Under the pieces are notes generated by a model that ran no database searches, was not told the DNA's origin, and saw only the letters and a list, made by a program, of their open reading frames with translations. 58,146 bases of DNA, taken from a virus (Duplodnaviria; Caudoviricetes). Positions 1,250 through 57,324 of this stretch are shown here, one piece after another; within the stretch, counting starts at the first letter, position 1, and each line of letters begins with the position of its first letter. The translations under genes and the position numbers were made by a program. The stretch lies in the IMG/VR virus record IMGVR_UViG_3300030102_005682, positions 1 through 58,146 of that record. One strand, written 5' to 3'.

Positions 1250-3162
1250 ATGAATTTAATTGGATACTACCAGAATACAAAGAAGAAAGGATTGAGCCCT
1301 ACATGAGCAACCAAATACCAATGTTTCAACCACCAAGTGAATGGTTGCCACCTGAGAGCATTCCTAATTTAAGTGATGCAAAAGAAATAGCAGTAGATTT
1401 AGAAACAAGAGATGAAAAAATAAAAGAGTTAGGACCTGGTTGGGCTACTGGAGAAGGAGATGTTATTGGTGTAGCTGTGGCTGTGGAGGGTTGGAAAGGT
1501 TATTTTCCTTTGAAACATCCTGGTGGTGGTAACTTTGATGAAAAAATATTTTATAGAAATTTTAAAAAATTAATGTCTTTGCCAAATCGTAAAATTTTTC
1601 ACAATGCAATGTATGACGTGGGTTGGCTAAAGCAAAAAGATATTCAGGTAAATGGTAATTATATTGATACAATGATTGCAGCTCAAATTATTGATGAGAA
1701 TCGTATGGGTTACTCTCTCAATGCTGTTGCTAAAGATTACCTGGGTGAAAAGAAAAACGAAAATTTATTGTATGAAGCTGCAAAAGAATGGGGTGTTGAT
1801 CCAAAAGGTGAGATGTTTAAACTCCCCGCTCAGTTCGTAGGACCCTATGCAGAACAAGACGCTGACCTGACTTTACGTTTATGGCATCGTTTAGAATCAG
1901 AAATATATAAACAAGATCTAGTTTCCGTCTTCTCTCTTGAAACCAATATACTTCCTGCGTTGATAGAGATGAAGTGGAGAGGCGTGCGGGTTGACACCAG
2001 TCGTGCTACTCAAATTAAAGAGAATCTTTTGGAAGAAGAGAATGCCCTCCTTACAAAAATAAAATCTATTTCAGGAGTTTCTGTTGATGTTTGGGCAGCA
2101 CGATCCGTCGCCAAAGCCTTTGATGCTATGGGTATACCTTACAATAGAACTGAAAAAGCAAAAGAGCCAAAGTTTGATAAAAATTTTCTAGCCACACATA
2201 ATAGTGATCTTGCCAAGCTTGTAGTTCAGACTCGTGAGATAAACAAGGCCAGGACCACATTTATTGACACAATTATGAAACATCAAAAGAACGGTCGTAT
2301 ACATGCAGAGATACATCAAATGAAATCTGATGTAGGAGGCACAGTGACCGGTAGATTTTCCATGAGCAATCCAAACTTACAACAGATACCTGCTCGTAAT
2401 GAAAAAATAGGTCCTATGATTAGAAGTTTATTTATACCTGAGGAGGGAGCGAAGTGGGGTTGTTTTGATTACAATCAACAAGAGCCCAGACTTGTGGCTC
2501 ACTATGCAGCTATAACCAGGAATGGCCTGGAGGGCGCTGATAAAGTTATTGATGGTTATAATAGTGACCTGGACTTTCATGGCACCGTGGCTGAAATGGC
2601 TAACATTGATCGTAAGATTGCAAAGACAATTAACCTAGGATTGTTTTATGGTATGGGTAAAGGTAAATTAAAAAGTCAATTAGGATTAAATGATGAGCAG
2701 GCTGATGAGTTATTTAAAACTTATCATAGTAGAGTTCCTTTTGTAAAACAGCTCACGGACCAAGCGTCAAAGTCTGCACAAGAAAATGGTTTTGTTAGAA
2801 CTTTACTTGGACGTAAGTGTCGTTTTGATTTGTGGGAGCCAAACAGTTTCGGTATTCATAAACCATTGAACAGGGACCAAGCGACAAAAGAACATGGAAA
2901 AAATATTAGAAGAGCTTTTACATACAAAGCGCTCAATAGATTAATACAAGGCAGTGCAGCTGACATGACCAAGAAAGCAATTTTAGATTTATATAAAGAA
3001 GGGATAGTCCCGCACATTCAAGTTCATGATGAGTTAGACTGTTCTTTTGACTCTGAGATCCAAGCAAAGAAGATTGAGAAGCTCATGGTTGAATGTGTTA
3101 ATTTAAAAGTTCCAGTAAAGGTAGATTGTGAAATTGGCGATAATTGGGGAGAAATCAAGTAA
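1246..3162 (+). CDS. polA: Family A DNA polymerase with 3'-5' exonuclease domain
   Basis: Exo motifs DLET, HNAMYD, YAEQD; polymerase motifs TGRFS, DYNQQEPR, RKIAKTINLGLFYG, IQGSAAD, VHDE. Start could be 1303. Confidence 0.96.
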   Translation: MNEFNWILPEYKEERIEPYMSNQIPMFQPPSEWLPPESIPNLSDAKEIAVDLETRDEKIKELGPGWATGEGDVIGVAVAVEGWKGYFPLKHPGGGNFDEKIFYRNFKKLMSLPNRKIFHNAMYDVGWLKQKDIQVNGNYIDTMIAAQIIDENRMGYSLNAVAKDYLGEKKNENLLYEAAKEWGVDPKGEMFKLPAQFVGPYAEQDADLTLRLWHRLESEIYKQDLVSVFSLETNILPALIEMKWRGVRVDTSRATQIKENLLEEENALLTKIKSISGVSVDVWAARSVAKAFDAMGIPYNRTEKAKEPKFDKNFLATHNSDLAKLVVQTREINKARTTFIDTIMKHQKNGRIHAEIHQMKSDVGGTVTGRFSMSNPNLQQIPARNEKIGPMIRSLFIPEEGAKWGCFDYNQQEPRLVAHYAAITRNGLEGADKVIDGYNSDLDFHGTVAEMANIDRKIAKTINLGLFYGMGKGKLKSQLGLNDEQADELFKTYHSRVPFVKQLTDQASKSAQENGFVRTLLGRKCRFDLWEPNSFGIHKPLNRDQATKEHGKNIRRAFTYKALNRLIQGSAADMTKKAILDLYKEGIVPHIQVHDELDCSFDSEIQAKKIEKLMVECVNLKVPVKVDCEIGDNWGEIK

Positions 3163-3255
3163 ATTAAATCGGTTTTAAGGACCGTACAGGGGTGTTTTAG
3201 ATGTGCCCGTGTATGATTGCATTCGGAAAAAAATTAAGAAAATAACTAATTAGGA

Positions 3256-3288
3256 CTTGTAATTACATTATGAGATAATATATAATTA
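3256..3288 (+). promoter_or_regulatory. Sigma70-like promoter of the RAMP/array operon
   Basis: TTGTAA (3257)-N18-TATAAT (3281); same CTTGTAATT-N14-TATATAATTA frame as 52923-52955. Confidence 0.7.
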
Positions 3289-3319
3289 GTTATAAACAGA
3301 AAGTAGAAAGGAGATCGAC

Positions 3320-3397
3320 ATGGAATATACAATACCAAGTTGGATCGAACTAATATTAATACAGAACGAGGAAATGGAGAGTGAATGCTCAGAGTAA
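3320..3397 (+). CDS. 25-aa acidic peptide (MEYTIPSWIELILIQNEEMESECSE)
   Basis: GAAAGGAG RBS directly after the promoter; below ORF-track cutoff. Confidence 0.5.
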   Translation: MEYTIPSWIELILIQNEEMESECSE

Positions 3398-3450
3398 TAA
3401 TCGGTTGTTGCATTGCTATTGCCATCTTCGTATGGATGGGATGGTTGTAA
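3385..3450 (+). CDS. 21-aa hydrophobic peptide (MLRVIIGCCIAIAIFVWMGWL)
   Basis: GGAG upstream; single TM-like stretch; TAATG coupling to next gene. Confidence 0.45.
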   Translation: MLRVIIGCCIAIAIFVWMGWL

Positions 3451-3611
3451 TGACAGACACGGGTAAATACAAATCGGTAGCGGTAAAGAAACCAAGCTAC
3501 CAAAAACTCAAAAGCATGGCTGAACAAGATTACAGATCTGTTGCTAGCTTTATAGAGTTCTTAGTTGACAAGGAAGCTGAAGAAAGGAGAAAGTCAAATG
3601 CCAACAAGTAA
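3450..3611 (+). CDS. Ribbon-helix-helix (CopG/Arc-like) DNA-binding protein
   Basis: YKSVAVKKPSYQKLKSMAEQDYRSVASFIEFLV has the beta-helix-helix RHH pattern; coupled ATG at 3450 preferred over 3381. Confidence 0.65.
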   Translation: MTDTGKYKSVAVKKPSYQKLKSMAEQDYRSVASFIEFLVDKEAEERRKSNANK

Positions 3612-4230
3612 AAAGAAAGAGCCAGAGAATATTCAAGTACCTGGAATAAAACTACAAGACTGCGTAATCACAGTGAAGGGGAGTTCACCTTTAATCTGTA
3701 ACAAGTGGTCAGAAAAAGCAAAACAAGAAATCAGAGATAAGCAGATGAAAATAGCTAAAGCTGCAGGTAGAGAAGCGAAGGATCCTGAAAAGTGTTTTAA
3801 CGATTCTTTGTATAAGATGCCTGATGGTAAGGGTTATGGTTTTCCTGCAATTGCATTTAAAGCAGCTGCGGTTAACGCTTGCTCTCACATTGAGGGTTTA
3901 ACAAAAGTCTCTGCACGTGGATCATTTCACATACCTTGTGATCTTATTCCTATTAAGGGTAAGCCAATCATGAGAGAGGATATGGTTCGTGTAGGTATGG
4001 GCGCTGCTGATCTTAGATACAGAGGTGAGTTTACAGATTGGGAAGCTAGTATTCCTGTTAAGTATAACTCTAACGCTTGGTCAATTGAACAGTTGATCAA
4101 CGTATTTAACGTTGCTGGATTTGCGTCTGGTGTTGGTGAGTGGAGACCACAGAAGAATGGTAACTTCGGTATGTTCTCAGTCACTGAGGTTCAAAAGATG
4201 GAATATAATGAGGAGGTAAAAATTGCCTAG
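3598..4230 (+). CDS. Stand-alone RAMP/Cas7-like RNA-binding protein (candidate effector)
   Basis: ITVKGSSPL, YGFPAIAFKAA, RYRGEFTDW and Gly-rich loop GFASGVGEWRPQKNGNFGMF occur in RAMP order; AAGGAG RBS before ATG 3598. Confidence 0.7.
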   Translation: MPTSKKKEPENIQVPGIKLQDCVITVKGSSPLICNKWSEKAKQEIRDKQMKIAKAAGREAKDPEKCFNDSLYKMPDGKGYGFPAIAFKAAAVNACSHIEGLTKVSARGSFHIPCDLIPIKGKPIMREDMVRVGMGAADLRYRGEFTDWEASIPVKYNSNAWSIEQLINVFNVAGFASGVGEWRPQKNGNFGMFSVTEVQKMEYNEEVKIA

Positions 4231-4732
4231 AGTAAAAGTAGTAAGTGATAAAGAGTACGTTTGGAGACAAGGTACAAGATATTCAGTGGAGGCACAGGTT
4301 GCTGGAGAGCATCTTGAGTCTTTGGAATACAAGCACGGGGCTCTCACCCCAGACCTGGTTGTGCGGGAGGCTAGAAAGAAGAGTTCACCTCTCCACCCAT
4401 GCTTTACGTGGGACGATACAAAAGCAGCTGAGAGCTATCGAAGGTTTGAGGCCAGGAAACTAACAGGATCAGTCCTCGTCGTGACTCAGCAAACAACTGA
4501 ACCTGTTCGTGCTTTTCATAGTGTTCCTATAACCATAACGTCTGACGATGAGCAGGCTCGAGGTTATGTTTCACTGGACGTGGCGATTGCAGACGAAGGT
4601 CATAGAAATCATTTGTTGCAACAAGCGTTTCGTGACTTAGCGGCCTGGAGAAATAAATATGCGGAGTTGAAAGAACTTCATAGTATTTTTTCCCAGGCAG
4701 ATCGCCTTGTGGAGAAATATTCTATTAGATAA
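4223..4732 (+). CDS. Uncharacterised partner protein coupled to the RAMP-like gene
   Basis: GGAGG RBS plus TTG overlapping the upstream stop; motif LTPDLVVREARKKSSPLHPCFTWDDTKAAESYR. Confidence 0.8.
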   Translation: MPRVKVVSDKEYVWRQGTRYSVEAQVAGEHLESLEYKHGALTPDLVVREARKKSSPLHPCFTWDDTKAAESYRRFEARKLTGSVLVVTQQTTEPVRAFHSVPITITSDDEQARGYVSLDVAIADEGHRNHLLQQAFRDLAAWRNKYAELKELHSIFSQADRLVEKYSIR

Positions 4733-4743
4733 TAGAATGATTG

Positions 4744-4773
4744 GTAGCGGAGGTAATACTCCGCTACTATTTT
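4744..4773 (+). terminator. Hairpin; weak intrinsic terminator or processing site
   Basis: GTAGCGGAG-gtaata-CTCCGCTAC followed by TATTTT. Confidence 0.55.
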
Positions 4774-4788
4774 AGAAAGGAAAGAAAG

Positions 4789-4893
4789 ATGGAAAAATAT
4801 AATTTTGATCACATAATTAAAATTTTATTAACTAAAGCAGGATGGATAAGGGTTCCTTTATACCTTCCAAGAAAGGAAGAAAATGGTAAGTAA
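4789..4893 (+). CDS. 34-aa hypothetical protein
   Basis: GAAAGGA RBS; MEKYNFDHIIKILLTKAGWIRVPLYLPRKEENGK. Confidence 0.5.
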   Translation: MEKYNFDHIIKILLTKAGWIRVPLYLPRKEENGK

Positions 4894-5116
4894 AGTAGGA
4901 TGGTCGATGGAAGAAGAGTTACAGGAATATAGAGAGTTATATGATAAAGTAGAAGAGGCTGTTATTGCATTAAAAGCAGCTCAAGAGTTAAAAGCTTTTC
5001 TTTATCTTGATCCTCTGCAACAAGAACATTTTAAAGTTACAATTCATGATCTTGAAAGTTTCTTGTCTGTGATAGATGAGGCTTCGACTGTCGAGATTGA
5101 TCAGTCGCCTGTATAG
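4883..5116 (+). CDS. Acidic helical hypothetical protein
   Basis: RBS-like GAAAGGA; the stop codon overlaps the first base of the array. Confidence 0.65.
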   Translation: MVSKVGWSMEEELQEYRELYDKVEEAVIALKAAQELKAFLYLDPLQQEHFKVTIHDLESFLSVIDEASTVEIDQSPV

Positions 5117-5537
5117 GCAGGAGAGGTGGGGCTGGGTGCGTTGTTATGAGGTAGTTTACGGCAGGAGTGGTGAGGTCGGGTACGTTCTGGTGGTAGCAAG
5201 GCGTGTTGTGGCAGGCTAGGTGAGTTATGGTGAGGTGAGATTAGTTCAGGAGTGGCAGGTGTGGTGAGTTGTGTCTCGGTGGGTTACGATTGCGGACAGG
5301 TTGAGTCAGTTCGGGGCATGGTGTTGTGAGGCGTGGATTGGTGAGGCAGGCCAGGTATGCCCAGGTTTGGTATGATCCGGACGGTTTAGGCAAGGCAGGC
5401 GGGGCGAGGTCGGGCTAGTTGCGGAGGGGTAGGTCACGGCAGGCGTGGTAAGTTTGAGCGAGGTATGGTCGGTCTTGTTGCGGCAGGTGGGGTGAGGCGC
5501 TGTCAGGTGAGGAGTGGTATAGGCATGTTGAGGCTGG
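5116..5537 (+). ncRNA. Array of nine GGCA-delimited units of GGY-NN pentamers (candidate guide-RNA array)
   Basis: GGCAGG at 5116, 5160, 5210, 5254, 5345, 5394, 5438, 5482; variant GGACAGG at 5294; terminal GGCTGG at 5532. Four units are exactly 4+8x5=44 nt. Repeat structure is certain; RNA function is inferred. Confidence 0.75.
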
Positions 5538-5550
5538 AAAGGAGTTTTGA

Positions 5551-5682
5551 ATGGATGATAAAATGAAAGCGTTGCAGGTTGTAAATGATTACATAAGATT
5601 TGACCGTGCATCATCGAACGTGACCGCAGCTTGGGAGACTGTGTTACGTTACATAAAGAGTTTGGAAAAGAGTGTAAAATAA
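5551..5682 (+). CDS. 43-aa hypothetical protein
   Basis: GAAAGGAG RBS immediately after the array; MDDKMKALQVVNDYIRFDRASSNVTAAWETVLRYIKSLEKSVK. Confidence 0.6.
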   Translation: MDDKMKALQVVNDYIRFDRASSNVTAAWETVLRYIKSLEKSVK

Positions 5683-5887
5683 TTATACTTGTAAGTGGAT
5701 TCTTTATCCCACTTAGATCCAAGAAAGCCGACACCTGGCTGGCCTAGTAGTGTTAACGAACCCCCTGGTGGTGTGACTGATGGAGAGACATCTTTCAGAA
5801 AGTCAAGAAAACAATTTTAAAAAAATCTTTTGAGGTTGGGATTGTAATTTTATATATTGGAGTTTCGACACTAAATAGGAGGTCCGA

Positions 5888-6016
5888 ATGGAAAACTTAG
5901 AAGAGAAATATCAAGAAGCGTTGCAAGCGATAGCTTACCTGCACAATGAGTTACTAGCTGTAAAGCATTGTCAGTGTGGCGATGATGAAGCAACAGAAGA
6001 GGATGACGAGGCCTAA
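5888..6016 (+). CDS. 42-aa acidic hypothetical protein
   Basis: AGGAGG RBS; MENLEEKYQEALQAIAYLHNELLAVKHCQCGDDEATEEDDEA. Confidence 0.6.
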   Translation: MENLEEKYQEALQAIAYLHNELLAVKHCQCGDDEATEEDDEA

Positions 6017-6228
6017 TACAGGCCTTCGTGTCCCTGCTCGAAGTATTTATTTTTTAAGTGCCTGTCCCAGAAAGACTTTCCATTCGCTACAATGATGTTC
6101 CACTCTCGATGACTAAAGCGCTCTGTTGAGCCATCTTTGTATTCCACCTCGTAGACCATGTCATGACCTCCTGAGTCAGTCTGTTGTTCAAACACCCTTA
6201 GCTGCTTAATTATATCTTTTAGCTTCAT
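6013..6228 (-). CDS. Hypothetical protein
   Basis: Last gene of an overlapping minus-strand cluster. Confidence 0.65.
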   Translation of the reverse strand: MKLKDIIKQLRVFEQQTDSGGHDMVYEVEYKDGSTERFSHREWNIIVANGKSFWDRHLKNKYFEQGHEGLY

Positions 6229-6487
6229 GGTATTTTAAATACTTAATCTCTTTTACCATACCTTTGGGAATAATTGCAACCCTTCCTCCTTCCTGGCCAC
6301 CATCATCACACCAGTCTGCCATCAAAGATATTTGAGTTTCATCGTCTTTTACTAGCCAACCTATTGAAAAACAACCCGCAGGGGTCTTTTTTACAATGTC
6401 TTTGTATTCTACCCACCCAGAAAACGGCTCGGTAGCGTCTTCCCATCGGACTATCACAATCGGTGTAGTCTTCAGGTTAAATTTCAT
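6206..6487 (-). CDS. Conserved-looking phage hypothetical protein
   Basis: IVRWEDA..GW, SIGWLVKDD, IIPKGMVKEIK pattern; ATGA coupling at 6487. Confidence 0.7.
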   Translation of the reverse strand: MKFNLKTTPIVIVRWEDATEPFSGWVEYKDIVKKTPAGCFSIGWLVKDDETQISLMADWCDDGGQEGGRVAIIPKGMVKEIKYLKYHEAKRYN

Positions 6488-7122
6488 GCTTTCTTTCTTA
6501 AGGTATTTTGACCAGGGACCAATTTTAAACATTTAGTGTGTTCTGTTCCTTTTGATACTGCGAACCATTGCTCGTGTCCTTGTATGAAATCAATTGAGCT
6601 GTTACCTGGGCACTTTCCTTTTGAAAAAGTATCATTCACAGCCTGTTGAACTGATGCTAATGCCATGTCATCGCCGACCATGGTCCCGCCTTCTTTAAGC
6701 TTGGGCCACCAGTTTAGTATGTCTTCCATAACTGGCTCATACTCGTGGGCTCCGTCTATAATGATGGCTTGAAAATGTTTGTTATGAAATCTTTTTAATG
6801 TGTTTACATCATCTGATCTTGATTTAACAGGTGTTACTATACCTTTGTCTATGAATACTTGGCAGTTTTTTAAGAACTTGTCATAGAAACCACCTACGAT
6901 ATCTAAGTTTGCATGTTCAGAGCTACCTTCGAAAGTGTCTAATGCGTAGACATGTAGCTTTTTACCTGAGTTGATAATGCTAGTGGCCAGGTAAGATGTT
7001 GACCTGCCCATGAAACTACCTATCTCTAAGATCTCATCACCGTCTTCACATAGATCTATGAGTTGGTCGTACGCTTCGTGCATGTTAAACCATCCAGGTA
7101 TTTTAAAGTAAGTTTGTTTCAT
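6484..7122 (-). CDS. Class I SAM-dependent methyltransferase (Methyltransf_24-like)
   Basis: LEIGSFMGRST, DTFEGS, IIIDGAHEY, LKEGGTMVGDD. Confidence 0.85.
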   Translation of the reverse strand: MKQTYFKIPGWFNMHEAYDQLIDLCEDGDEILEIGSFMGRSTSYLATSIINSGKKLHVYALDTFEGSSEHANLDIVGGFYDKFLKNCQVFIDKGIVTPVKSRSDDVNTLKRFHNKHFQAIIIDGAHEYEPVMEDILNWWPKLKEGGTMVGDDMALASVQQAVNDTFSKGKCPGNSSIDFIQGHEQWFAVSKGTEHTKCLKLVPGQNTLRKKA

Positions 7123-18785: not shown

Positions 18786-18976
18786 TGGATATATTTCAAT
18801 TATTCACTTTGTTTAAAAAACAAATAGAAGAGCGTGAGGCAAATTTAGTTGAGACAGTAACTTCTGGTGTCAAAGATTGGGACGAATATAAGTATTTGAC
18901 AGGCAAGTTAGAAGCATTAAAGTCAACAAAATTAGAAATGCAAGAAACAATGAAGAGGTTTGAAGAACATGAGTAA
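18785..18976 (+). CDS. Hypothetical protein preceding GroES
   Basis: GVKDWDEYKYLTGKLEAL; coupled GTG start. Confidence 0.7.
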   Translation: MDIFQLFTLFKKQIEEREANLVETVTSGVKDWDEYKYLTGKLEALKSTKLEMQETMKRFEEHE

Positions 18977-19376
18977 ATTAATATTGCCTGATTATTTGGC
19001 AAAAAAAGAAGAGAAAGCAAAAGAATTATCCGATATGCAAAAACTACCTCAACCAACAGGTTGGAGGCTTTTAATAATGCCACATACTGGTATCCGAAAA
19101 ACAAAAGGTGGTGTTCACCTTACGGATAAGGCACAAGAAGAAATTCAATTGACAACTAATGTAGGATTAGTCTTGAAAGTTGGACCAGATGCGTATAAAG
19201 ATAGTAATAGATTTCCTGAGGGTCCTTGGTGCAAGGAAAAAGATTGGGTTCTTTTTGCCAAGTATGCGGGCTCTAGGATTAAGATCGAAGGTGGGGAGCT
19301 AAGACTTTTGAACGATGATGAAGTTTTAGCAGTTATAGAGGATCCAGAAGACATATTACATGCAACATATAAATAG
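18969..19376 (+). CDS. groES: Phage co-chaperonin GroES
   Basis: PTGWRLLI, TKGGVHL, VLKVGP, VLFAKYAG, LLNDDEVLAVI. Confidence 0.92.
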   Translation: MSKLILPDYLAKKEEKAKELSDMQKLPQPTGWRLLIMPHTGIRKTKGGVHLTDKAQEEIQLTTNVGLVLKVGPDAYKDSNRFPEGPWCKEKDWVLFAKYAGSRIKIEGGELRLLNDDEVLAVIEDPEDILHATYK

Positions 19377-30412: not shown

Positions 30413-31891
30413 ATGACCACCTACACTGTTACTGTTGTAAGCACCGGGGGTGGTAATAAGTATTTCATTAACGGTGTCCAACAGGACACAGTATATTTAG
30501 ACACTAACGGATCATTTGTTTTTGATCAGAGTGCAGGCTCTAACGATGGGCACCCTCTACAACTTAGTACTACATCAGGGGGAACTCATAGTGGCGGCAC
30601 TCGATATGATACAGGAGTAGTCTATACAGGAGATGGATCTACTGTAAGCGCTTCTGATTACATAAGTAATTTTAACACTTATACAACTAGAAGTGTTACG
30701 ATATCTCCAACAGCTTCAACACCTAATTTATTTTACTATTGTGCTATTCATCCAGCTATGGGTGGATCTGCTCCTGTGAGCGACAGGAACAGTTGGGGCA
30801 GACAGGCTTGGGGTAATGGTCAGTGGGGTGATCAAGCAGATGTAGATGAAACCTTAGGTTCTTTAACAGCATCTACAGCAGTGTCGTCTGCAACTGTAGA
30901 GGCAACAATAGGTTCGGGTTGGGGTAGAGATGCTTGGAGTAGTCTTGCTTGGGGCGTATCTCACTCTGCGGAGTTAGAATCATTACAATCAACATTTGCG
31001 GCAGGAACTCTCTCTGTAGAGGCCGATGCTTTAGTTCAACCAACAGGTGTATCAGCAACAACAGCTTTAGGCACCGCTACAGGCGAGCCCGAACATAGAA
31101 TATTTCCAACAGGAGTTTCTTCAACTACATCATTAGGTTCTGTAACCATTTTAGAGGGAGCGGGCACTATCTTAAATAGTCTTGCCATGACTTTTGCAAC
31201 TGGTGATGAAACAGGGTCTGGTACAGTCGATGTAGGTTGGGGTAGAAATACTTGGGGTTCATTCGCATGGAATGAAAATATAGAGTTTTTTGCAAACGTA
31301 ACTAGCGTTTCAATGACTTCAAATTTAGGAAATTTGACTGTGCCTGTTGCAGGTACGGGTGTCATAGTCAACGCTACAAGTTTAAGTATGACTGCAACTG
31401 CCGGAACATTATCAGTTTCAGGTGCATCAGCCTTAGTTGAACCAACTTCTCTTACAATAAGCGCCGCTCTTTCAGGAGTTACAGTTTCAGGTGAGGGTAG
31501 TGTTGGTGTTGTGGCTCCTTCAGATCAATTAGATTTTGCTATTGGAACACCTGTCATTGATATATTTACACAAGCAGACGTTACTGGTGTAGCACTGACA
31601 ACTAACTTAGGAGCTATAGGTACGGTTTCTGACGCATTAGTATCAGTTACGGGAGTGAGCTCTAGTTTTGCCTCAGGAACACCAAGCACAAACGTTGGAA
31701 CTGGTGTTATTGTGAACGTTTCAACAGTTGCGTTAAGTTTTAGTCCTGGTAGCGTTACACCAATCGCAGCTGCAGTGGTAAATTTAACAGGTTTAGAAAC
31801 AACCGCTACATTAGGAGATACCTTTGAAACACCATGGGCAAATGTGGTTACAGGAGCAAGTAATACATGGACAGAGGTAGATGCAGCATAA
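30413..31891 (+). CDS. Tail fibre/spike-like protein with cupredoxin-like N-domain and WG repeats
   Basis: GHPL...YYCAIHPAMG; three WG-rich repeats; Thr/Ser/Val-rich body. Confidence 0.65.
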   Translation: MTTYTVTVVSTGGGNKYFINGVQQDTVYLDTNGSFVFDQSAGSNDGHPLQLSTTSGGTHSGGTRYDTGVVYTGDGSTVSASDYISNFNTYTTRSVTISPTASTPNLFYYCAIHPAMGGSAPVSDRNSWGRQAWGNGQWGDQADVDETLGSLTASTAVSSATVEATIGSGWGRDAWSSLAWGVSHSAELESLQSTFAAGTLSVEADALVQPTGVSATTALGTATGEPEHRIFPTGVSSTTSLGSVTILEGAGTILNSLAMTFATGDETGSGTVDVGWGRNTWGSFAWNENIEFFANVTSVSMTSNLGNLTVPVAGTGVIVNATSLSMTATAGTLSVSGASALVEPTSLTISAALSGVTVSGEGSVGVVAPSDQLDFAIGTPVIDIFTQADVTGVALTTNLGAIGTVSDALVSVTGVSSSFASGTPSTNVGTGVIVNVSTVALSFSPGSVTPIAAAVVNLTGLETTATLGDTFETPWANVVTGASNTWTEVDAA

Positions 31892-32381
31892 TTCAAATTT
31901 GTTTGACGTAATCGATAATTTTTTACCACAAGACTATTTTAAACAACTACAAGATTTACTTATTTATAATGATAATTTTCCTTATTATTTAATAAAAGGT
32001 AAGGTCATTGAGGAAGACGATGACTATCAATTTACACATCTTATAGTTGATAGAGGAAATGTAAACTCTGCTTATTTAGATAAATTTATTCCAGTTTTTG
32101 AAAAATTAAATGCAAAAAGAATACAAAGAGCTAAAATTAATTTACAACCAAGATCTGCAAATATTGAATTAAGCCGTGCTCATAAAGACTATGATGAGGG
32201 GGACATAAAAGCATGTGTATTGTATTTAAATACTAATAATGGATTTACTTATTTTGGTGAAGAAAAGGTGTACTCGGTGGAAAATAGAGTTGTGTTATTT
32301 AATGGAAATCATTTACACGGAGGTAGCACTTGCACCGATCATAATGTTAGAGTAGTATTAAATATCAACTATTTTGATTAA
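31881..32381 (+). CDS. 2OG-Fe(II) oxygenase
   Basis: HKD...YLNTNNGFT...H...RVVLNINY. Confidence 0.8.
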   Translation: MQHNSNLFDVIDNFLPQDYFKQLQDLLIYNDNFPYYLIKGKVIEEDDDYQFTHLIVDRGNVNSAYLDKFIPVFEKLNAKRIQRAKINLQPRSANIELSRAHKDYDEGDIKACVLYLNTNNGFTYFGEEKVYSVENRVVLFNGNHLHGGSTCTDHNVRVVLNINYFD

Positions 32382-35135: not shown

Positions 35136-35723
35136 TTGAGCGATACTTACGACATATTTCGCATACCTGTTTTTGCAGAGTATACAGATTTAGATAATAA
35201 AGCCATGAGTGATTATTCTTTATCGCTTATGGAAAAAGATGAAGGACGTAAACTTTCTAACGAAGGAGGATGGCAGTCCAAAGATTTGACAGGTGTGCAC
35301 ATGCCTCTCAACGATTTATTTAAAAACATTACTACCGCAAGTAATAACTTTGCATCACAATTATTCTTACCTAAACAACAAATAAGTAATATTTGGATTA
35401 ATATAAATGGCTACAAAGATTTTAATACAAGTCATAGACATCCTAATTCTTTTTTGTCAGGTGTTTACTATTTACAAACACATGAAAATTGTGGTTGCAT
35501 ATCAATGACTAATCCTTGTGCATCTCTTATTGAAGGCTATTGGTCCCCACATTTAACTGTTGTTAATGAAAATAAACTTAATTTAAAATGGGAGTTTCTA
35601 GCGGAAACAGGCAGAATGTTTATCTTTCCGAGTTGGATGGAGCATGAAGTAAAACCCAACTTAGACAAAGATAAAAAAAGAATTTCAATATCTTGGAACA
35701 CATGTGTTGATAAAGGAGAATAG
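35136..35723 (+). CDS. 2OG-Fe(II) oxygenase (TIGR02466-like)
   Basis: HRHPNSFLSGVYY, FPSWMEHEV, RISISWN. Confidence 0.85.
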   Translation: MSDTYDIFRIPVFAEYTDLDNKAMSDYSLSLMEKDEGRKLSNEGGWQSKDLTGVHMPLNDLFKNITTASNNFASQLFLPKQQISNIWININGYKDFNTSHRHPNSFLSGVYYLQTHENCGCISMTNPCASLIEGYWSPHLTVVNENKLNLKWEFLAETGRMFIFPSWMEHEVKPNLDKDKKRISISWNTCVDKGE

Positions 35724-36542
35724 ATGATAAAACCAGAAGAATTAAAAGAAAAAGATTTTAGAATATATTTAGGAATGCCAATGTATGGGGGAATGTTATG
35801 TGAAGCCACATTACATGGTCTTCTTGAGGTACAGCAATGGAGTATGGCTAAGGGAGTAGGATTACGTTTTCAATCCATGGGTAATGAAAGTTTAATAACT
35901 AGAGCGAGAAATACAATTGTTTCAATGATGTTTGACGATAAAGATTTTATAGGAACTCATCTTTTATTTATTGATGCAGATATAGGTTTCTCTTGGAGAA
36001 ATATTGAGAGGCTATTGTGTGCAGATAAAGATGTTGTGTGTGGTATTTATCCAAGAAAACATTTGCATCTTGAAAAAGCATCTAAATGGATAAATGAAAA
36101 CCCTAATATTAAACCTGATGAATTAGAAGCAAAGATGTTAGGATATAATCTTAACTTTGATGATCCTAATAACCTAAGAGGTGAGAATGGTTTTTTTAGA
36201 GTTAATGAAGCTGCAACAGGTATGATGTTAGTTAAGAGAGAAGTTTTTAGAACTATGTTTAAAAAGTTTCCTGAGAGAAAATATGAATCTGATCAAATAG
36301 TTAATGGTGAGTATCTTAAGTCTGATAATTGTTATGACTTGTTTGCTGTTGGTCCTTATGAAACACAACACGTTGATGGCACACCAATGATTAGATATCT
36401 ATCAGAAGATTATTACTTTTCAAGATTATGGCAAGAGTGTGGCGGGGAGATATGGGCTGACCTGGCCATGCCATTAACACACTTTGGTAACAGAGCATTT
36501 AAAGGTCATGTTGGATCTTTAGTGGCAGCTAAAAATGCGTGA
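35724..36542 (+). CDS. GT-A fold glycosyltransferase
   Basis: SLITRARN, LFIDADI (DxD), TGMML, SEDYYF. Confidence 0.8.
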   Translation: MIKPEELKEKDFRIYLGMPMYGGMLCEATLHGLLEVQQWSMAKGVGLRFQSMGNESLITRARNTIVSMMFDDKDFIGTHLLFIDADIGFSWRNIERLLCADKDVVCGIYPRKHLHLEKASKWINENPNIKPDELEAKMLGYNLNFDDPNNLRGENGFFRVNEAATGMMLVKREVFRTMFKKFPERKYESDQIVNGEYLKSDNCYDLFAVGPYETQHVDGTPMIRYLSEDYYFSRLWQECGGEIWADLAMPLTHFGNRAFKGHVGSLVAAKNA

Positions 36543-37113
36543 GTTTAATTTACCAAAAAACACTCTCATGGGTGGTTGGTTTATCAATGGTAAAATTTGT
36601 GATGACATCATCAAGTCTTATAAAGATAATAGTATAAGAGCTAAAGAGGGTAAGGTATATGATGAACAACAAAACTCTATTGTTGAAAAAAAAACTAAAG
36701 AAAGTTTTGATTTACACTTTGAGGCAAGCATGCTTTTTTCACCCTATAGAGATTATTTAGATGAATTACAAAAAGCCTTAGATCTTTATCATAACAAATA
36801 TCCCATGCTTAATGAGATACAAAGGTTTACCATTAGAGAGTTTATTTACATACAAAAGTATCCACCAGGAGGGGGTTTTAAAAAGTGGCATTTTGAAGAA
36901 CCAGGAAATTTGAGAAGATGTCTCGTTTTTATGACTTTCTTAAATGACTTGACTGATGAAGGAGGAACTGAGTTTCTTTATCAAGACTTAAAAGTAGAAC
37001 CTAAAAAAGGATTAACTCTAATATGGCCATCTTACTGGACTCACACTCATCGTGGTGTTATTAGTAAAACTCAAGAAAAATACATTGTTACTGGTTGGTA
37101 CAGTAATTTTTAA
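36535..37113 (+). CDS. 2OG-Fe(II) oxygenase (prolyl-hydroxylase-like)
   Basis: WHFE, FLND..GGTEF, HTHRG, KYIVTGW. Confidence 0.85.
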   Translation: MREFNLPKNTLMGGWFINGKICDDIIKSYKDNSIRAKEGKVYDEQQNSIVEKKTKESFDLHFEASMLFSPYRDYLDELQKALDLYHNKYPMLNEIQRFTIREFIYIQKYPPGGGFKKWHFEEPGNLRRCLVFMTFLNDLTDEGGTEFLYQDLKVEPKKGLTLIWPSYWTHTHRGVISKTQEKYIVTGWYSNF

Positions 37114-39284: not shown

Positions 39285-39633
39285 CGTATTTAGAAGATTT
39301 ATAACAAATGTTACAACTACAGATTTAACGACTGTTTTTACTGTGCCAACTGCTAATGTTGCAGCTACGCCTCCAGTTCCTGTTTCGACATTTATAGTAA
39401 AAACTATAAATGTTCATAACTATGATGGGTCCTCGTCCGTAACTTTAGATATAGATCATAATGATGGTAGCTCTGACTTACAAATATTTCAGGTTGACGT
39501 ATCCGCTACAAATACAAACACCATTAGTACAAGCATGGTGTATGAAGAAGGAGACGCTATGAAAGTGCAGGCTAATGCAGCATCAAGAGCAATGATAGAA
39601 GTATCAGTGTTGGAGGTAAAACAACAACTGTAA
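39277..39633 (+). CDS. Small beta-rich structural protein
   Basis: AAGGAG upstream; operon context. Confidence 0.65.
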   Translation: MADVFRRFITNVTTTDLTTVFTVPTANVAATPPVPVSTFIVKTINVHNYDGSSSVTLDIDHNDGSSDLQIFQVDVSATNTNTISTSMVYEEGDAMKVQANAASRAMIEVSVLEVKQQL

Positions 39634-40223
39634 TGTACGTTTTAGGTAAATTACCACAAGAAATAATTACTAAACTAGATGAGATTGTAAGTAAGAAACA
39701 TACAGTCAAAGCAAATTACGACTTAGCGGGAAACATAAAAAAAGAATTTATGATACCTGATGCAAAACCATATGTATGGCCTATGCTTGATGCTCTAATA
39801 AAAGAGTGGAAAGATAGATATCCTCATGAGTTTGCGTATATAGGTAGCATGTCAAACTCAAAAGAATTTAAATTAAGACTTTTCAACACTTGGGTTAATT
39901 TTCAAGAAAAATATGAATTTAATCCTATACATACTCATGATGGTATATTTAGTTTTGTTATTTGGCATAAGGTGCCATTCACTAAAAAAGATGAATATGC
40001 TAGGTTTCCTAACATGAAAGAAGACCAAATAAAAGCAGGACACTTTGCTTTTGTGATGACTGATCAAATGGGAGGTATAAAACAACACGACATTTGTGTT
40101 GATAAAGAGTGGGAGGGTAAGATAGCTTTATTTCCTGCAAAATTAAATCATCTCGTTTACCCTTTTTATACTTCTGATGAGCCTAGAATATCTATATCTG
40201 GTAACATAGGCTTCGCTACTTAA
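39633..40223 (+). CDS. 2OG-Fe(II) oxygenase
   Basis: FNPIHTHDG..SFV, FPAKLNHLVYPF, RISISGN. Confidence 0.85.
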   Translation: MYVLGKLPQEIITKLDEIVSKKHTVKANYDLAGNIKKEFMIPDAKPYVWPMLDALIKEWKDRYPHEFAYIGSMSNSKEFKLRLFNTWVNFQEKYEFNPIHTHDGIFSFVIWHKVPFTKKDEYARFPNMKEDQIKAGHFAFVMTDQMGGIKQHDICVDKEWEGKIALFPAKLNHLVYPFYTSDEPRISISGNIGFAT

Positions 40224-49740: not shown

Positions 49741-50205
49741 TTGAGTATAATTATTTCTCAAATTGAGAATCCTTATCACTCTTCGTACATAGATTTAATT
49801 CATAAAGAATACGCTGTAAAAAACACTGAGTTTAATAAAAATAAAAAAACAGTTGGTTATGAAACAATAACAACAAATAGTCTTTATTTACATCTTTCTC
49901 ATGAATCTTGTTCGTATATCGCCGATTATGCCTGCTCTCTTTTAAAGTCTAATTACACCACTGTTAATTGCTGGGGAGTGCACTACATGCCTAATTTTGA
50001 ATTTGATAGGCACGACCACGCAGGCTACGATTACACTTTTGTGTATTATGTTTCTGTCCCTGAGAACTCACCTATAATTTTTGATTATTTTTCTTACGCT
50101 CCAAGAAACCGTGATCTCATTATATTTCCAGCCTCTCTTCATCATTGGGTTGAACCAGTGCCTCATGATCGATATATCATCGCTGGTAATTTAAAATCTT
50201 TATAA
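49741..50205 (+). CDS. 2OG-Fe(II) oxygenase
   Basis: HDH...FVYYV, FPASLHHWV, RYIIAGN. Confidence 0.8.
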   Translation: MSIIISQIENPYHSSYIDLIHKEYAVKNTEFNKNKKTVGYETITTNSLYLHLSHESCSYIADYACSLLKSNYTTVNCWGVHYMPNFEFDRHDHAGYDYTFVYYVSVPENSPIIFDYFSYAPRNRDLIIFPASLHHWVEPVPHDRYIIAGNLKSL

Positions 50206-50398: not shown

Positions 50399-50629
50399 TT
50401 ATTTTTTAAGTTTAGATTTGCTTTTTTGAGACTCTAGATGATCTTCTATTGCATCCCATACCTCTACATTAGACCAATGATTTAGAACAGCTTTAGACAC
50501 GTCTTCATGTAAAACTTTTAAAGTTCTAACGCCTATTGGTACAGGTTTTCCTTTGTTTTCATAAAGATGATCAATCTCTTCTCCAGTTAAACTTAAATAA
50601 ACTTCACCGCTTTGATACATTATTCTCAT
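50399..50629 (-). CDS. Hypothetical protein
   Basis: ATGA coupling to the upstream gene at 50626-50629. Confidence 0.65.
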   Translation of the reverse strand: MRIMYQSGEVYLSLTGEEIDHLYENKGKPVPIGVRTLKVLHEDVSKAVLNHWSNVEVWDAIEDHLESQKSKSKLKK

Positions 50630-51468
50630 ACTCCACACATCCCTTCGCAATCGTTAATGGCAACGCCACCTAGCTCGTCAAACATTGATATTTGTTTGTC
50701 TTCTGCCTTTTTATCTATATCTATTTCGCTTAAAGGCTTACCCTCTTTGGTAACAAACACGGTATAGCCTTCACGCATACCTTTGAACCCACCATTGATT
50801 TTCTTTTCAAATTCAATGACGTGTTGAAACTCTTCAGGTGAATTATCTTTTAAATATTTCCATTCTTTCCATGTTTTATAAGGACAAAAGGTACAGGCTG
50901 ATCTTGGTGGTTTTGGCATTTCGTGGTCATCAAACCATTTTTTACACATCGCTCTAGTTATGTTTCTTTCAACCAAAGGATATACATTTCTAATCCAAGG
51001 TTTCCTGGCCTCTTTAACACGATACATCTCGTCACGAGATATACCCATGATCATATCAACAACAACGCCTTTCTTAACACGTTGTCCTTTTTTATATCCC
51101 ATGTGAGTTCTAATAAATTTATGAATAGGTTCTATTTTGTAATGACCTGTACACTGCCTGGTAAGAATACCCATGCTATTTTTCTTTGGATCTTTTGTAA
51201 AAAAAGGAGGGGTTCTTGAAGTATGTAAACCCTGCGCAGCTTCTATAGAATCTTGTTCTATATCTCCTGCACTGATTACATGAATAGGATAATTTTTTAT
51301 TTTACTCTTCATCCAATCGAACCAATCATAAACTTCTTTTGGTTCTGCCATGGTGTCAGCAAACACAGCAAAATCAGGCATGGGACCTATCTCACCATAC
51401 TCATACATAAATGCCAAAGTGCTTGATTGCACTCCCGCTCCTAAAGATAATACGTTCAAATCAGCCAT
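50626..51468 (-). CDS. PP-loop (PAPS-reductase/adenine-nucleotide alpha-hydrolase-like) protein
   Basis: VLSLGAGVQS, FADT..E, RQCT..YKI.P, SACTFCPY, terminal CEGMCGV. Confidence 0.75.
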   Translation of the reverse strand: MADLNVLSLGAGVQSSTLAFMYEYGEIGPMPDFAVFADTMAEPKEVYDWFDWMKSKIKNYPIHVISAGDIEQDSIEAAQGLHTSRTPPFFTKDPKKNSMGILTRQCTGHYKIEPIHKFIRTHMGYKKGQRVKKGVVVDMIMGISRDEMYRVKEARKPWIRNVYPLVERNITRAMCKKWFDDHEMPKPPRSACTFCPYKTWKEWKYLKDNSPEEFQHVIEFEKKINGGFKGMREGYTVFVTKEGKPLSEIDIDKKAEDKQISMFDELGGVAINDCEGMCGV

Positions 51469-52898
51469 TGTTTTAGCTCCTCTCCCATGACCTCTGTCGC
51501 CAAGTTAATCTTATTTCTTAAACTTTGTACAATCTTCTCATCCACAGTGCCTTCAGTTACTAAGTCAACATAAGTGACTTTTGATGTTTGTCCTATGCGG
51601 TGCACTCTATCCTCCGATTGTAACCGGACTTCTAAGTCATAAGAGTTACTGTAATATATCACAGTGTGGCTCTTGGTTAAAGTTAAACCATAGCCTCCTG
51701 TTTTAGGATTACCCACAAAATAACGAAGCTCTTCGCCATTTTGAAACTCATCCACAATTTGTTGTCTTTCTTCGCTCGGTGTGTCTCCATAAAAAGTAGC
51801 AACTGATCGTGGACCGTGCACCTTTGAAATTTCTGTTGCAATTGTTTGAATGTCATGTCTATAGTTTGCCCAAATCAAAACTTTGCCTGATGTCTCATCT
51901 AATATATTCATTAATTCTTTTAACCTGTTATTCTCTACTGCTTTTACTTCTCCGTTATCTAGCTTCACATGGCCACAAACTATCTGGTGTAGCCTTAGTA
52001 TTTGTGTTAATGCTGATAGCGCTGTCAATCTTTCTCCCTCTAATTCTGCTATGGCCATTCTTTTCATAGTTACATACATCTCTAATTGTTTTGGAGTCAT
52101 TGATACATTACGAACTTGATATATTTTCTCAGGTAGATCTAAACAATCATCTTTTAAAACTCTGTATGAAAAATTATCTAACTTATCGGCTAACTCACCA
52201 AGTCTTTGATAACTGACTATCATACTAAACTGATGTGTAGGCATATTTCTTTTTACCATTACACAATATCTATTCTTAAATGTCCAAAAGGAACTAAACC
52301 CTAGTAAGTCCTCACTTAAAAAAGCACATTGTGCATATAGATCTATTGGTGAACGAGTGACAGGAGAGCCTGTCATAATACGTCTGTATTTGATTAGCGG
52401 GGATAATTTTAAAATATTTTTAGTCCTGGCCGCAGTAGGATTTTTTATAGTAGTGCTTTCATCTACAGCCACCATGGCTTTGTGTGATAACAAAAACTTC
52501 TTTGCAAAATCAACACCTTTCTTTGTGCTGAAAGCCTCCACGTTCATTAGCAAAATTTTAAAATTATCATTAGGTAAAAAAACTTTTTCTAATTTTTTTC
52601 TGTCCTCTGCTTTATTGTCTGACCCCCACACGAATATGTCAGGAGTTATGTGCTCAGGTAAATGACTTTTAAGTTCTCTTTTCCAATTTTTATAAACAGT
52701 CTTAGGCGCTATGACCATTAGCGTTTCAATATCGCCTCTATCCCACAACCAGCTAGCGTTATATATTGCAACTAATGTTTTACCTGTGCCCATCTCCATA
52801 AACCAAGCAAACTCCTCCTTATCAAGGGCAGCGCCCAGTGCAGCTAATTGATGAGCAAAAGGCTCAGTCTTAAACGGATAGTCCTGTAATTTTTTCAT
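51456..52898 (-). CDS. SNF2-family SF2 helicase
   Basis: MEMGTGKT, VDEST, TGSP, GYGLTL, QSEDRVHRIGQ. Confidence 0.92.
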   Translation of the reverse strand: MKKLQDYPFKTEPFAHQLAALGAALDKEEFAWFMEMGTGKTLVAIYNASWLWDRGDIETLMVIAPKTVYKNWKRELKSHLPEHITPDIFVWGSDNKAEDRKKLEKVFLPNDNFKILLMNVEAFSTKKGVDFAKKFLLSHKAMVAVDESTTIKNPTAARTKNILKLSPLIKYRRIMTGSPVTRSPIDLYAQCAFLSEDLLGFSSFWTFKNRYCVMVKRNMPTHQFSMIVSYQRLGELADKLDNFSYRVLKDDCLDLPEKIYQVRNVSMTPKQLEMYVTMKRMAIAELEGERLTALSALTQILRLHQIVCGHVKLDNGEVKAVENNRLKELMNILDETSGKVLIWANYRHDIQTIATEISKVHGPRSVATFYGDTPSEERQQIVDEFQNGEELRYFVGNPKTGGYGLTLTKSHTVIYYSNSYDLEVRLQSEDRVHRIGQTSKVTYVDLVTEGTVDEKIVQSLRNKINLATEVMGEELKQWLI

Positions 52899-56242: not shown

Positions 56243-57324
56243 AACATTTAGATTTATTTTCAGGTATAGGTGGGTTTAGTCTTGGTTTAGAAGAAGCAGG
56301 ATTAGTTGATACGGTAGCTTTTTGTGATTGGGAGGCTTACTGTCAAGAAGTTTTAAGAAAACATTGGCCAGGCGTGCCAGTGTATGGAGATATAAAGGAG
56401 CTAACACATGAAAGACTCAGAGCAGATGGAATTAATTCCATCGACATCATCACAGGAGGATACCCCTGTCAGCCTTTCTCAGTCGCTGGACGACAAAAAG
56501 CTGAAAAGGATCCGAGACATCTCTGGCCAGAGTATTTTAGGCTTGTCAAAGAACTCAGGCCAACTTGGGTCATTGGAGAAAACGTTAGTGGACACGTTAA
56601 ACTCGGTCTCGACACCGTACTCGAGAACTTGGAGAGTGAAGGTTACTCAACAAGGACGTTTAGTATTTCAGCTTCGAGCATCGGTGCCAACCATCAACGG
56701 GAAAGGATCTGGGTTATTGCCCACGCCAACGACACAGGAGATAGAACATCACGACATCAATTTAACAAAGACAGGGAGAAGATTATCAAAGGACGGGAAG
56801 AGCAGTCACAGTTTGAACTTAGCAGATACGGTGAGGGTTTGGAGAACTCCAGATGCTCACAGTGGCCGTGGAGCTTCGAGCAAGGAAAGAATGAAGATGA
56901 AATTAGAGAAGGGTATGCCAATCAGCCTGAACGATCAGGTGGCACATCCGAACTTGATGTGGCCGACTCCAAGAGCATCAGCAGCGATGGCAGAGGACAT
57001 CAAGAATATACAGAAGCGGGGCACGGAGAGGGGCAGGTTAGAGGAGAGAGTGGCTTTAAGATGGCCGACTCCAACTACAAACGACAGCAAGAACAACGGG
57101 GGAGCATCTCAACTACGAGCAGGCAGGAGAGGTTTTGGAAAGAATCTGAATGCCGTAGTAGCGCAGAGATCTCAAAATGGTGGGAGTCTGAACCCGACGT
57201 GGGTCGAGTGGCTCATGGCTTACCCAAAAGGGTGGACAGACTTAAGTGCTTAGGTAATGCAGTTGTACCTATTATTCCTTATCTGATCGGTAAAAGTATT
57301 CTAGAGACATACGACATTGAGTAA
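56236..57324 (+). CDS. C5 cytosine DNA methyltransferase, alpha chain (motifs I-VIII and X)
   Basis: DLFSGIGG, GGYPCQPFS, GENV, HQRERIW, LKCLGNAV; start proposed at ATT 56236 (ORF track gives 56167). Confidence 0.9.
   Translation: MLKHLDLFSGIGGFSLGLEEAGLVDTVAFCDWEAYCQEVLRKHWPGVPVYGDIKELTHERLRADGINSIDIITGGYPCQPFSVAGRQKAEKDPRHLWPEYFRLVKELRPTWVIGENVSGHVKLGLDTVLENLESEGYSTRTFSISASSIGANHQRERIWVIAHANDTGDRTSRHQFNKDREKIIKGREEQSQFELSRYGEGLENSRCSQWPWSFEQGKNEDEIREGYANQPERSGGTSELDVADSKSISSDGRGHQEYTEAGHGEGQVRGESGFKMADSNYKRQQEQRGSISTTSRQERFWKESECRSSAEISKWWESEPDVGRVAHGLPKRVDRLKCLGNAVVPIIPYLIGKSILETYDIE
56408..57253 (+). CDS. Overlapping +1-frame methyltransferase beta chain (TRD-like repeats and motif IX)
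   Basis: AAGGAG 7 nt before ATG; four (L/W)(P/R)TP repeats; LNPTWVEWLMAYPKGWT. Confidence 0.75.
   Translation: MKDSEQMELIPSTSSQEDTPVSLSQSLDDKKLKRIRDISGQSILGLSKNSGQLGSLEKTLVDTLNSVSTPYSRTWRVKVTQQGRLVFQLRASVPTINGKGSGLLPTPTTQEIEHHDINLTKTGRRLSKDGKSSHSLNLADTVRVWRTPDAHSGRGASSKERMKMKLEKGMPISLNDQVAHPNLMWPTPRASAAMAEDIKNIQKRGTERGRLEERVALRWPTPTTNDSKNNGGASQLRAGRRGFGKNLNAVVAQRSQNGGSLNPTWVEWLMAYPKGWTDLSA

Follow-up and report, generated by a model that had tools for sequence, protein, structure and literature searches.

Systems of the VIPR kind (for Viral Interference Programmable Repeat) combine a RAMP protein, Vipr, and a vap gene with guide RNAs (vrRNAs) built of 9–16 YNNGG units (Y, pyrimidine; N, any base), whose target is read as xNN, one base being skipped per unit (10.64898/2026.04.26.720920). 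That preprint presents seven VIPR types and 667 classified systems, names NNNGG, YNNNG and NNNNG as repeat variants in its Methods, and describes "staggered arrays" of head-to-tail vrRNAs overlapping by 1 nucleotide (nt), for which the legend to its fig. S18 gives neither type nor taxa. Cryo-electron microscopy of the system of Escherichia phage SUSP1 resolved the filament, with one protomer per 5-nt unit, and the residues that contact the guide, R138 of the thumb and D177, W178 and R179 of the G-loop holding two guanines and a pyrimidine (10.64898/2026.04.26.720927). VIPR has also been placed in phage-satellite competition (10.64898/2026.10.15.759431), and a set of 99 period-5 clusters includes 21 with non-GGY motifs, some of them degenerate at one fixed position (10.64898/2026.10.21.760802). 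Here we describe a locus in the IMG/VR record IMGVR_UViG_3300030102_005682, a phage genome analysed over its whole 58,146 bp (hereafter the window), which is very probably the VIPR system of a marine lytic podophage.

This assignment draws on what could be established directly, namely the predicted fold of the Vipr protein, its homology to a solved Vipr, the conservation of its contact residues, the anatomy of the array, the co-occurrence of gene and array, and one decoded match. An initial annotation, made from the DNA letters and their translations, had proposed a phage RNA-guided system here and likened it to recently reported VIPR-type systems; that comparison was correct, the systems having been published in 2026 (10.64898/2026.04.26.720920 and three further preprints). 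Since VIPR is already in print in these four preprints, the novelty of the locus is low.

The Vipr protein and its pentamer array

The 210-amino-acid (aa) protein encoded at 3598–4230 has no match in Pfam or NCBIfam and falls in an unnamed family in PHROGs. It does match PDB entry 36pp_D, the "SUSP1 Vipr protein", with an E-value of 4.7e-5 as a single sequence and 4.4e-8 with a 32-sequence profile; comparison by hhalign with the SUSP1 gene, found through the accession (NC_028808.2) printed in 10.64898/2026.10.15.759431, gave a probability of 96.7% and an E-value of 3.3e-10 over 64 columns. Both HMMER and hhalign align R142, E181, W182 and R183 with SUSP1 R138, D177, W178 and R179, three of these four GG-contact residues being identical and the fourth a conservative change from D to E. 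Across an alignment of 32 homologues, R142, E181 and R183 are invariant and W182 is conserved in at least 90%. An AlphaFold2 (AF2) model (mean predicted local distance difference test, pLDDT, 80.6) shows a single RRM with the order β1-α1-β-hairpin-α2-G-loop-β4, in which the thumb is a β-hairpin at about residues 123–145, including R142, and the G-loop spans S177–G191, including the motif GVGEWRP. The closest solved folds in the structure library searched are Csm3 and type VII Cas7. We accordingly identify the protein, from its sequence and predicted fold, as a Vipr, a Cas7-like RAMP.

The array tract extends from 5117 to about 5545 (429 nt) and is 46% G. Eight GGCAGG junctions place unit starts at 5117, 5161, 5211, 5255, 5346, 5395, 5439 and 5483, and a ninth junction, the variant GACAGG near 5300, brings the count to nine units, 44–50 nt apart, every one of which opens with GCAGG and holds 9–10 pentamers. 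The spacing is 5n-1, so that the last G of each unit doubles as the G of the next GCAGG. When pentamers are read in fives from each junction (n=41 in phase), position 1 is Y in 90% and G in 0%, positions 2–3 are mixed, position 4 is G in 38 of 41 (93%), and position 5 is G in 66% and T in 24%; a binomial test against the array's own G content gives P values of 3e-10 (position 4) and 9e-12 (position 1). The fixed part is hence G-K-Y (K, G or T), giving a GKY/NN rather than a strict GGY/NN motif, a handle that the mycobacteriophage, Gordonia-phage and cyanophage homologues have as well.

This tract stands out from the rest of the genome. Runs of NNNGG scoring at least 4 number five in the 58 kb, both strands taken together, all of them inside 5117–5517, with scores of 4–4.5 (two with four perfect NNNGG pentamers and three with seven pentamers and one break); the published search threshold, which tolerates internal degeneracy, is at least 4 YNNGG units, and these runs reach it. 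Likewise, the seven strongest of about 1,160 sliding 200-nt segments in period-5 G power all start at 5051–5451. Over the array as a whole the period-5 Fourier power is low (0.66), since every new unit displaces the register. GG-to-GG distances of 5 number 31 against 18.9 (standard deviation 4.3) in mononucleotide shuffles, a crude count with a z of only about 2.8; the highest shuffle reached 39. Tandem Repeats Finder, run on the window, calls neither the array nor any CRISPR-like repeat, an Rfam scan of 3000–6200 returns nothing relevant and no family on the array, and the open reading frames (ORFs) overlapping the array on either strand match no PHROG.

The Vipr family comprises 4,242 proteins at E≤1e-3. 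We assembled 84 homologous loci (4 from GenBank, 80 from IMG/VR), of which 79 show 5-periodic NNNGG arrays on the gene strand (summed score 2922.5), against only 14 with runs on the opposite strand (summed score 65); two of the five array-less loci lie on contigs that stop just after the genes. The gene for the 169-aa partner protein, coupled to vipr through an 8-nt overlap, adjoins it in 75 of the 84. Among GenBank phages the two genes occur together in 33 of the 34 records holding the 210-aa gene (27 from Mycobacterium, 5 from Gordonia, one cyanophage and one Pseudomonas record with only a partial match to that gene). Clean GCAGG-CNNGG arrays accompany the Mycobacterium, Gordonia and cyanophage homologues, distant homologues have exemplary GCAGG CNNGG arrays with spacings of 54 or 59 nt, and fifteen close relatives (Vipr 85–99% identical) share the layout of the window. 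A ribbon-helix-helix (RHH) gene is present in 14 of the 84 loci, close relatives only, and the conserved core consists of vipr, partner and array alone.

Two GenBank annotations overlie such arrays. In locus L001, from Mycobacterium phage Donkeykong, the reading frames of gp48 (2480–2866) and of the first part of gp49 (2833–3000) cover a clean GCAGG-CNNGG array, and in L003, from Gordonia phage Pipp, gp43 (3611–3880) covers another, in both cases beside the vipr homologue; these "hypothetical protein" coding sequences are probably mis-annotated guide-RNA arrays.

In the window, the locus is a single co-oriented unit, with the DNA polymerase gene on one side and a group of minus-strand genes on the other, and has the following features:

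3257–3286, + strand: promoter-like site TTGTAA-18-TATAAT upstream of the operon; sigma-70-like, 10/12 consensus positions, the top match within 3100–6000 and a consensus match only
3450–3611, + strand: 53-aa RHH-like (Arc/CopG-like) ORF overlapping the vipr start; weak profile matches
3598–4230, + strand: vipr, 210-aa Cas7-like RAMP, predicted from homology and the AF2 model
4223–4732, + strand: vap-like accessory gene, 169 aa; phrog_15946, E 1.8e-24
4742–4769, + strand: strong terminator-like hairpin with UAUUUU after it; stem of 11 bp, folding energy -19.7 kcal/mol, z -6.2 relative to 200 shuffled sequences
4789–4893, + strand: 34-aa clade-specific ORF; tblastn match in 15 of 84 loci
4883–5116, + strand: 77-aa ORF ending in a TAG stop immediately before the first array unit; matched by tblastn in 6 of 84 loci
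5117–5545, + strand: vrRNA array of nine staggered Y-N-N-G-K units, from junctions and pentamer statistics
5346–5395, + strand: unit U5, candidate guide to the histidine-triad (HIT) motif, from its decoded NN string
5439–5483, + strand: unit U7, the guide that most arrays of the clade have in common; identical NN code in 8 of them
5551–5682, + strand: 43-aa ORF with its ribosome-binding site inside the last array unit; tblastn match in 14 of 84 loci, no family

The RHH-like ORF is a possible operon regulator on the strength of matches to RHH_5 (E 0.0017) and RHH_7 (E 0.0071), both under the Pfam cut-offs, and to the Arc-like repressor family phrog_3180 (E 0.006). The hairpin is not called by a consensus terminator scan, and the 34-aa and 77-aa ORFs have no family above cut-off in Pfam or PHROGs. 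In the close relatives the array likewise begins straight after a TAG.

Much of what the initial annotation had read from the letters is borne out by these results: the coordinates of the co-oriented unit (promoter, RHH gene, 210-aa and 169-aa genes, two small ORFs and array), the nine-unit G-rich array (eight GGCAGG junctions plus the GACAGG variant), the RAMP/Cas7-like character of the 210-aa protein, to which the model, its nearest folds and the SUSP1 match all point, and the co-occurrence of homologues with 5-periodic arrays, which it had put forward as a check and which 79 of the 84 loci show on the gene strand. Of the refuting conditions that it had named, those examined did not speak against it. 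Two of its statements need amending. It had described GGY-NN pentamers, of which the period of 5, the first G and the Y stand and the strict GGY gives way to G-K-Y; and of the unit it had drawn, vipr, partner and array are kept across the loci, whereas the RHH gene (14/84) and the small ORFs (15/84 and 6/84) are not.

By homology to the SUSP1 system, the locus would work as follows. Transcription of the array and cleavage of the product would yield nine guide RNAs, each about 45–50 nt long; the 4-nt GG-CA-GG junction breaks the 5-nt register and so marks the guide boundaries. Vipr protomers would polymerise along each guide, one per pentamer, each gripping the fixed G-K-Y by its G-loop (E181, W182, R183) and thumb (R142) and presenting the two variable bases. 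The filament would then bind double-stranded DNA matching NN-x-NN-x..., with one base skipped per unit, and block transcription, possibly with the assistance of the 169-aa partner protein. The 5-nt footprint, protein-held GGY and variable NN code that the initial annotation had suggested agree, by analogy, with the SUSP1 papers, the published rule adding the skipped target base.

Decoded guides

The six units of the window that are in phase were decoded with one target base skipped per pentamer. Self-targets at three or fewer mismatches are absent from the window for five guides with 16–18 specified bases; the 14-base guides U4 and U8 have 2 and 7 near-matches there, respectively, at 2–3 mismatches. 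The clearest signal comes from U5, whose NN code CA AT CA TT AT CC CG TA AA translates, with 1-nt skips, as H-I-H-L-I-P-R-Y-K, a histidine-triad motif. Among 2.9 million viral contigs the exact U5 pattern is present in 2, each time in-frame in a HIT gene, and species genomes have it at no fewer than 120 loci, where a rough chance expectation is 17–40. Of the 120 U5 matches listed, 116 lie in-frame in the context '...GQ.V.H.H[IM]HLIPRY[KN]', and all ten U5-matched genes tested carry the Pfam HIT domain. U5 is common to five related arrays, one of which adds a tenth dinucleotide, GA, that fits the aspartate or glutamate codon next in many HIT genes. Few phages carry a HIT gene (13 records out of 50,697 at E≤1e-10), and the window itself has none. 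As far as sequence can tell, U5 is the one of the six scanned guides with a convincing target, at the level of a gene family, in a host or rival genome; the guide would be aimed at active-site codons of the HIT-family hydrolase, with the skipped bases on wobble positions.

A second catalytic motif appears in the arrays of relatives. Guides in loci L011, L012, L016, L017, L018, L006, L009, L013 and L014 decode to variants of Y-K-Q-I-G-N-A-V-x-V, which corresponds to motif X of C5 DNA methylases. One such guide matches at least 121 viral loci, and all 131 of the 131 matches listed read Y[KN]Q[MI]GNAVTV after QGFPD, a combination that we take to be motif IX-X of C5 cytosine methylases; PF00145 was found in the four of four matched genes tested. 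The window has neither a methylase-motif guide nor a C5 methylase with that motif.

On a single IMG/VR contig (L251/L252) three methylase-guide matches fall within 1.3 kb, and these are read from their sequence as tandem C5-methylase genes or fragments thereof.

The other window guides gave less definite results. U3 (19 exact matches) hits unrelated proteins, U6 (6) short ORFs, and U8 nothing. The U7 pattern has 10 viral and at least 118 metagenome matches in all six frames with no dominant family; an 'ANRISQFT' virion/ejection-protein family was considered as its target and set aside as insufficient, being represented in just 4 of the 10 viral matches and 3 among the 118 metagenome matches listed. 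U1 (5117–5161) is ambiguous, with 29 exact matches, near chance numbers. Eleven of these share an identical 23-mer, ten of them in phage tRNA-Ser genes (bases 6–28, on the tRNA's own strand), and about 10 others are in a capsid-like protein of about 330 aa, the skipped base being codon position 1 in nine. The U1 matches may be chance amplified by conserved sequences.

The HIT and C5-methylase guides suggest, as decoded, a choice of invariant catalytic codons as targets. We put forward, as a tentative and on balance unlikely conjecture, that the lytic marine phage silences a HIT-family nucleotide hydrolase of its host by a VIPR guide, and not a rival phage or satellite, and that the clade writes guides against invariant catalytic-site codons; the skipped base being at the wobble position, a single 45-nt guide would then reach the enzyme in many genomes, and synonymous changes could offer no escape. 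If this were true, VIPR would also be an RNA-guided tool of host takeover or anti-defence, with family-wide rather than only strain-specific targeting; and if the HIT target were the host's own gene, host genes would have to be added to the known VIPR targets, which are satellites, prophages and other VIPRs. None of the terms methyltransferase, methylase, histidine triad, marine and tRNA occurs in the main texts of 10.64898/2026.04.26.720920 and 10.64898/2026.10.15.759431, the two preprints compared, nor does "host gene" in the main text of the former, the one text checked for it.

Guide turnover and genomic setting

Array content varies among near-identical phages. Eleven arrays with 51 in-phase units contain 36 distinct codes, the commonest of which, that of U7, stands at differing positions in its 8 arrays; units are common to, reordered and swapped between strains, and the HIT guide is replaced by another unit in the phage whose Vipr is 99% identical. 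In a comparison of strains and contigs over the stretch (four runs from three studies), a 3.1-kb contig of a marine strain (run X5) has 38 extra nt at 5482–5487, between U7 and U8, and 35 extra letters at 4883–4895, between the two small ORFs, which points to gain or loss of array material between strains. The locus thereby documents cassette-like gain, loss and reshuffling of guides.

The HIT guide also occurs next to tRNA sequences. In the relative L012, a tRNA-Cys gene (4753–4830) stops 5 nt short of the HIT guide, which comes first in that array, and an 88-nt seawater contig (run X8, depth 689) consists of a tRNA-like 3' end, TTTTT and an exact copy of unit 5346–5395. The HIT unit may exist elsewhere as a solo guide as well, and its 5' end could be the work of tRNA processing enzymes. 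A tRNA scan of the window found none.

The remaining genes of the window are those of a phage, including a DNA polymerase, helicases, primase, terminase, portal, capsid, tail fibre, ejection-protein and lysozyme. The large terminase shares 63–68% identity with its counterparts in the Pelagibacter phages HTVC023P and HTVC027P and in 'phage 023Pt_psg01', and near-identical DNA is present in marine, seawater and estuary runs from about 11 studies. We read the source as a lytic marine podophage, kin of HTVC023P and HTVC027P. The DNA of 3200–5700 has no similarity match among 50,697 phage records.

Elsewhere, the window has four genes of the 2-oxoglutarate-Fe(II) oxygenase family (35136–35723, 36535–37113, 39633–40223 and 49741–50205), a GroES-like gene (18960–19376) and an endonuclease V gene (31881–32381). 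A 3'-phosphoadenosine 5'-phosphosulfate (PAPS)-reductase-like gene lies beside a helicase on the minus strand (50626–52898), and methyltransferase-like genes are found at 6484–7122 and 56408–57253; the PAPS-reductase-like, helicase and methyltransferase-like genes may form a DNA-modification module.

Alternative readings and kinship with described systems

Several observations weigh against a working VIPR system at this locus. The alignment with SUSP1 spans the C-terminal ~65 residues only, i.e., the C-terminal third, and the SUSP1 contacts H17, K33 and E71/M72 have no placed counterparts. Three units contain a 1-nt phase slip and one third of the pentamers lack the second G, and units with either defect may bind poorly. 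The array is without the 3' tail or pseudoknot of characterised type II systems, and the hairpin at 4742–4769 separates the partner gene from the small ORFs and the array. The 169-aa partner protein is unrelated to SUSP1 Vap1 and has no match in Pfam, NCBIfam, PADLOC or PDB; its AF2 model (pLDDT 81.8, predicted template-modelling score 0.46) shows no informative fold match and no recognisable DNA-binding fold. Assembled RNA-library contigs (two libraries of one study) cover just 4278–4663, within the partner gene, where DNA carry-over is possible, and leave the array without any cover. As to targets, five of the six scanned guides (U1, U3, U6, U7 and U8) have no convincing one, and the exact U5 match spans more than 120 species of many phyla, a breadth that points to a gene family and leaves no host nameable.

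Some of the same evidence would be accounted for if the Vipr pair were real and its array decaying or orphaned, the RNAs no longer loading Vipr on account of the relaxed fifth position, the slips and short units, and the locus being a relic. A final GG is present in only 66% of the pentamers, perfect runs extend to no more than 4 pentamers as compared with 11–12 in the mycobacteriophage homologues, and to this are added the slips and the shortage of identifiable targets. Against this, the relaxed Y-N-N-G-K pattern recurs in ten arrays of the close relatives, whose distinct units supply 425 pentamers, with G at position 4 in 90% and G or T at position 5 in 69% and 24%, respectively, and it is seen again in the more distant locus L046. 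Moreover, the "broken" pentamers are kept unit by unit among phages with 85–99% identical Vipr, the slipped units are kept at the same length in relatives, repeat motifs degenerate at one fixed position are published for VIPR (10.64898/2026.10.21.760802), and the stretch is found in the marine, seawater and estuary runs of those 11 studies. We consider a relic improbable.

Far less probable still is that the G-rich tract is a structural or regulatory element, e.g., a G-quadruplex or the leader of the 43-aa ORF, lying near a RAMP gene by chance. Its 46% G, its several GGG and GGGG runs and the ribosome-binding site of ORF 5551–5682 in the last unit are compatible with such a role, but the 5-nt register that excludes G at position 1 and fixes it at position 4, the strand-specific linkage to vipr homologues, seen across unrelated phages in 79 of the 84 loci, and the decoded NN strings that spell conserved protein motifs in frame all speak for a guide array, and the predicted structure of the array RNA does not exceed that of shuffled sequences (z +1.42). 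That the locus is, in place of a VIPR, a remnant of a CRISPR-Cas system of type III or VII-like kind, minimal or degenerate, is hardly credible: Csm3 and type VII Cas7 are indeed the closest solved folds in the library searched, but Tandem Repeats Finder detects no CRISPR repeats in the window, no cas gene is found among its 69 ORFs scanned against PHROGs (as the initial annotation had maintained), and the single-RRM, 210-aa protein has a direct sequence match to SUSP1 Vipr beside an array of period 5.

Returning to the VIPR assignment, the locus displays the testable features of these systems: Vipr homology, contact residues, a pentamer array, co-occurrence of gene and array, and a minimal locus. 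Like the type II system of SUSP1 (NC_028808.2; Vipr, Vap1 and four vrRNAs), it is phage-borne, with a two-gene core and no cas genes, a single-RRM RAMP with the G-loop GVG[DE]WRP and a thumb arginine, and 5-nt units of a fixed G-rich trinucleotide plus variable NN; self-targeting is absent there and was not seen here for the five guides of 16–18 specified bases, and the candidate targets decoded here would, like those of SUSP1, lie within coding sequence and have a wobble position as the skipped base. Unlike SUSP1, its units measure 44–50 nt, not about 100 nt, and abut with a 1-nt overlap, the 3' tail and pseudoknot are missing, the fifth repeat position is relaxed (G/T), every unit lies downstream of the genes, with none on their upstream side, a marine host takes the place of an enterobacterial one, the partner gene shows no relation to Vap1, and only some 65 C-terminal Vipr residues align.

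Membership of type II was considered and rejected: without a structured 3' tail, with an unstructured array RNA and with a partner not related to Vap1, the locus is not filed there. The 5n-1 spacing and the shared G at every GGCAGG junction are instead those of the "staggered" arrays, and recur in Mycobacterium phage Donkeykong. By these sequence features we assign the locus to VIPR in a staggered, tail-less form.

From Csm3 (type III-A) and type VII Cas7 the Vipr protein is remote, with a sequence identity of 6–14%, and the locus differs from theirs in having no CRISPR array, Cas10, Cas5, Cas6 or second RRM, and a footprint of 5 rather than 6 nt. The non-canonical arrays of 10.64898/2026.10.21.760802 resemble the present one in their period of 5, the adjacent Vipr-like fold and the tolerance of degeneracy in the fixed trinucleotide; the G-K-Y profile, in which the second G becomes T in a quarter of units, is not among the variants named in the available text of that work. 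The kind of system, its pentamer code, the filament mechanism and the array variants are already published, and to them the window adds a complete VIPR system in a 58-kb marine podophage, documenting a tail-less staggered array with a relaxed G-K-Y handle.

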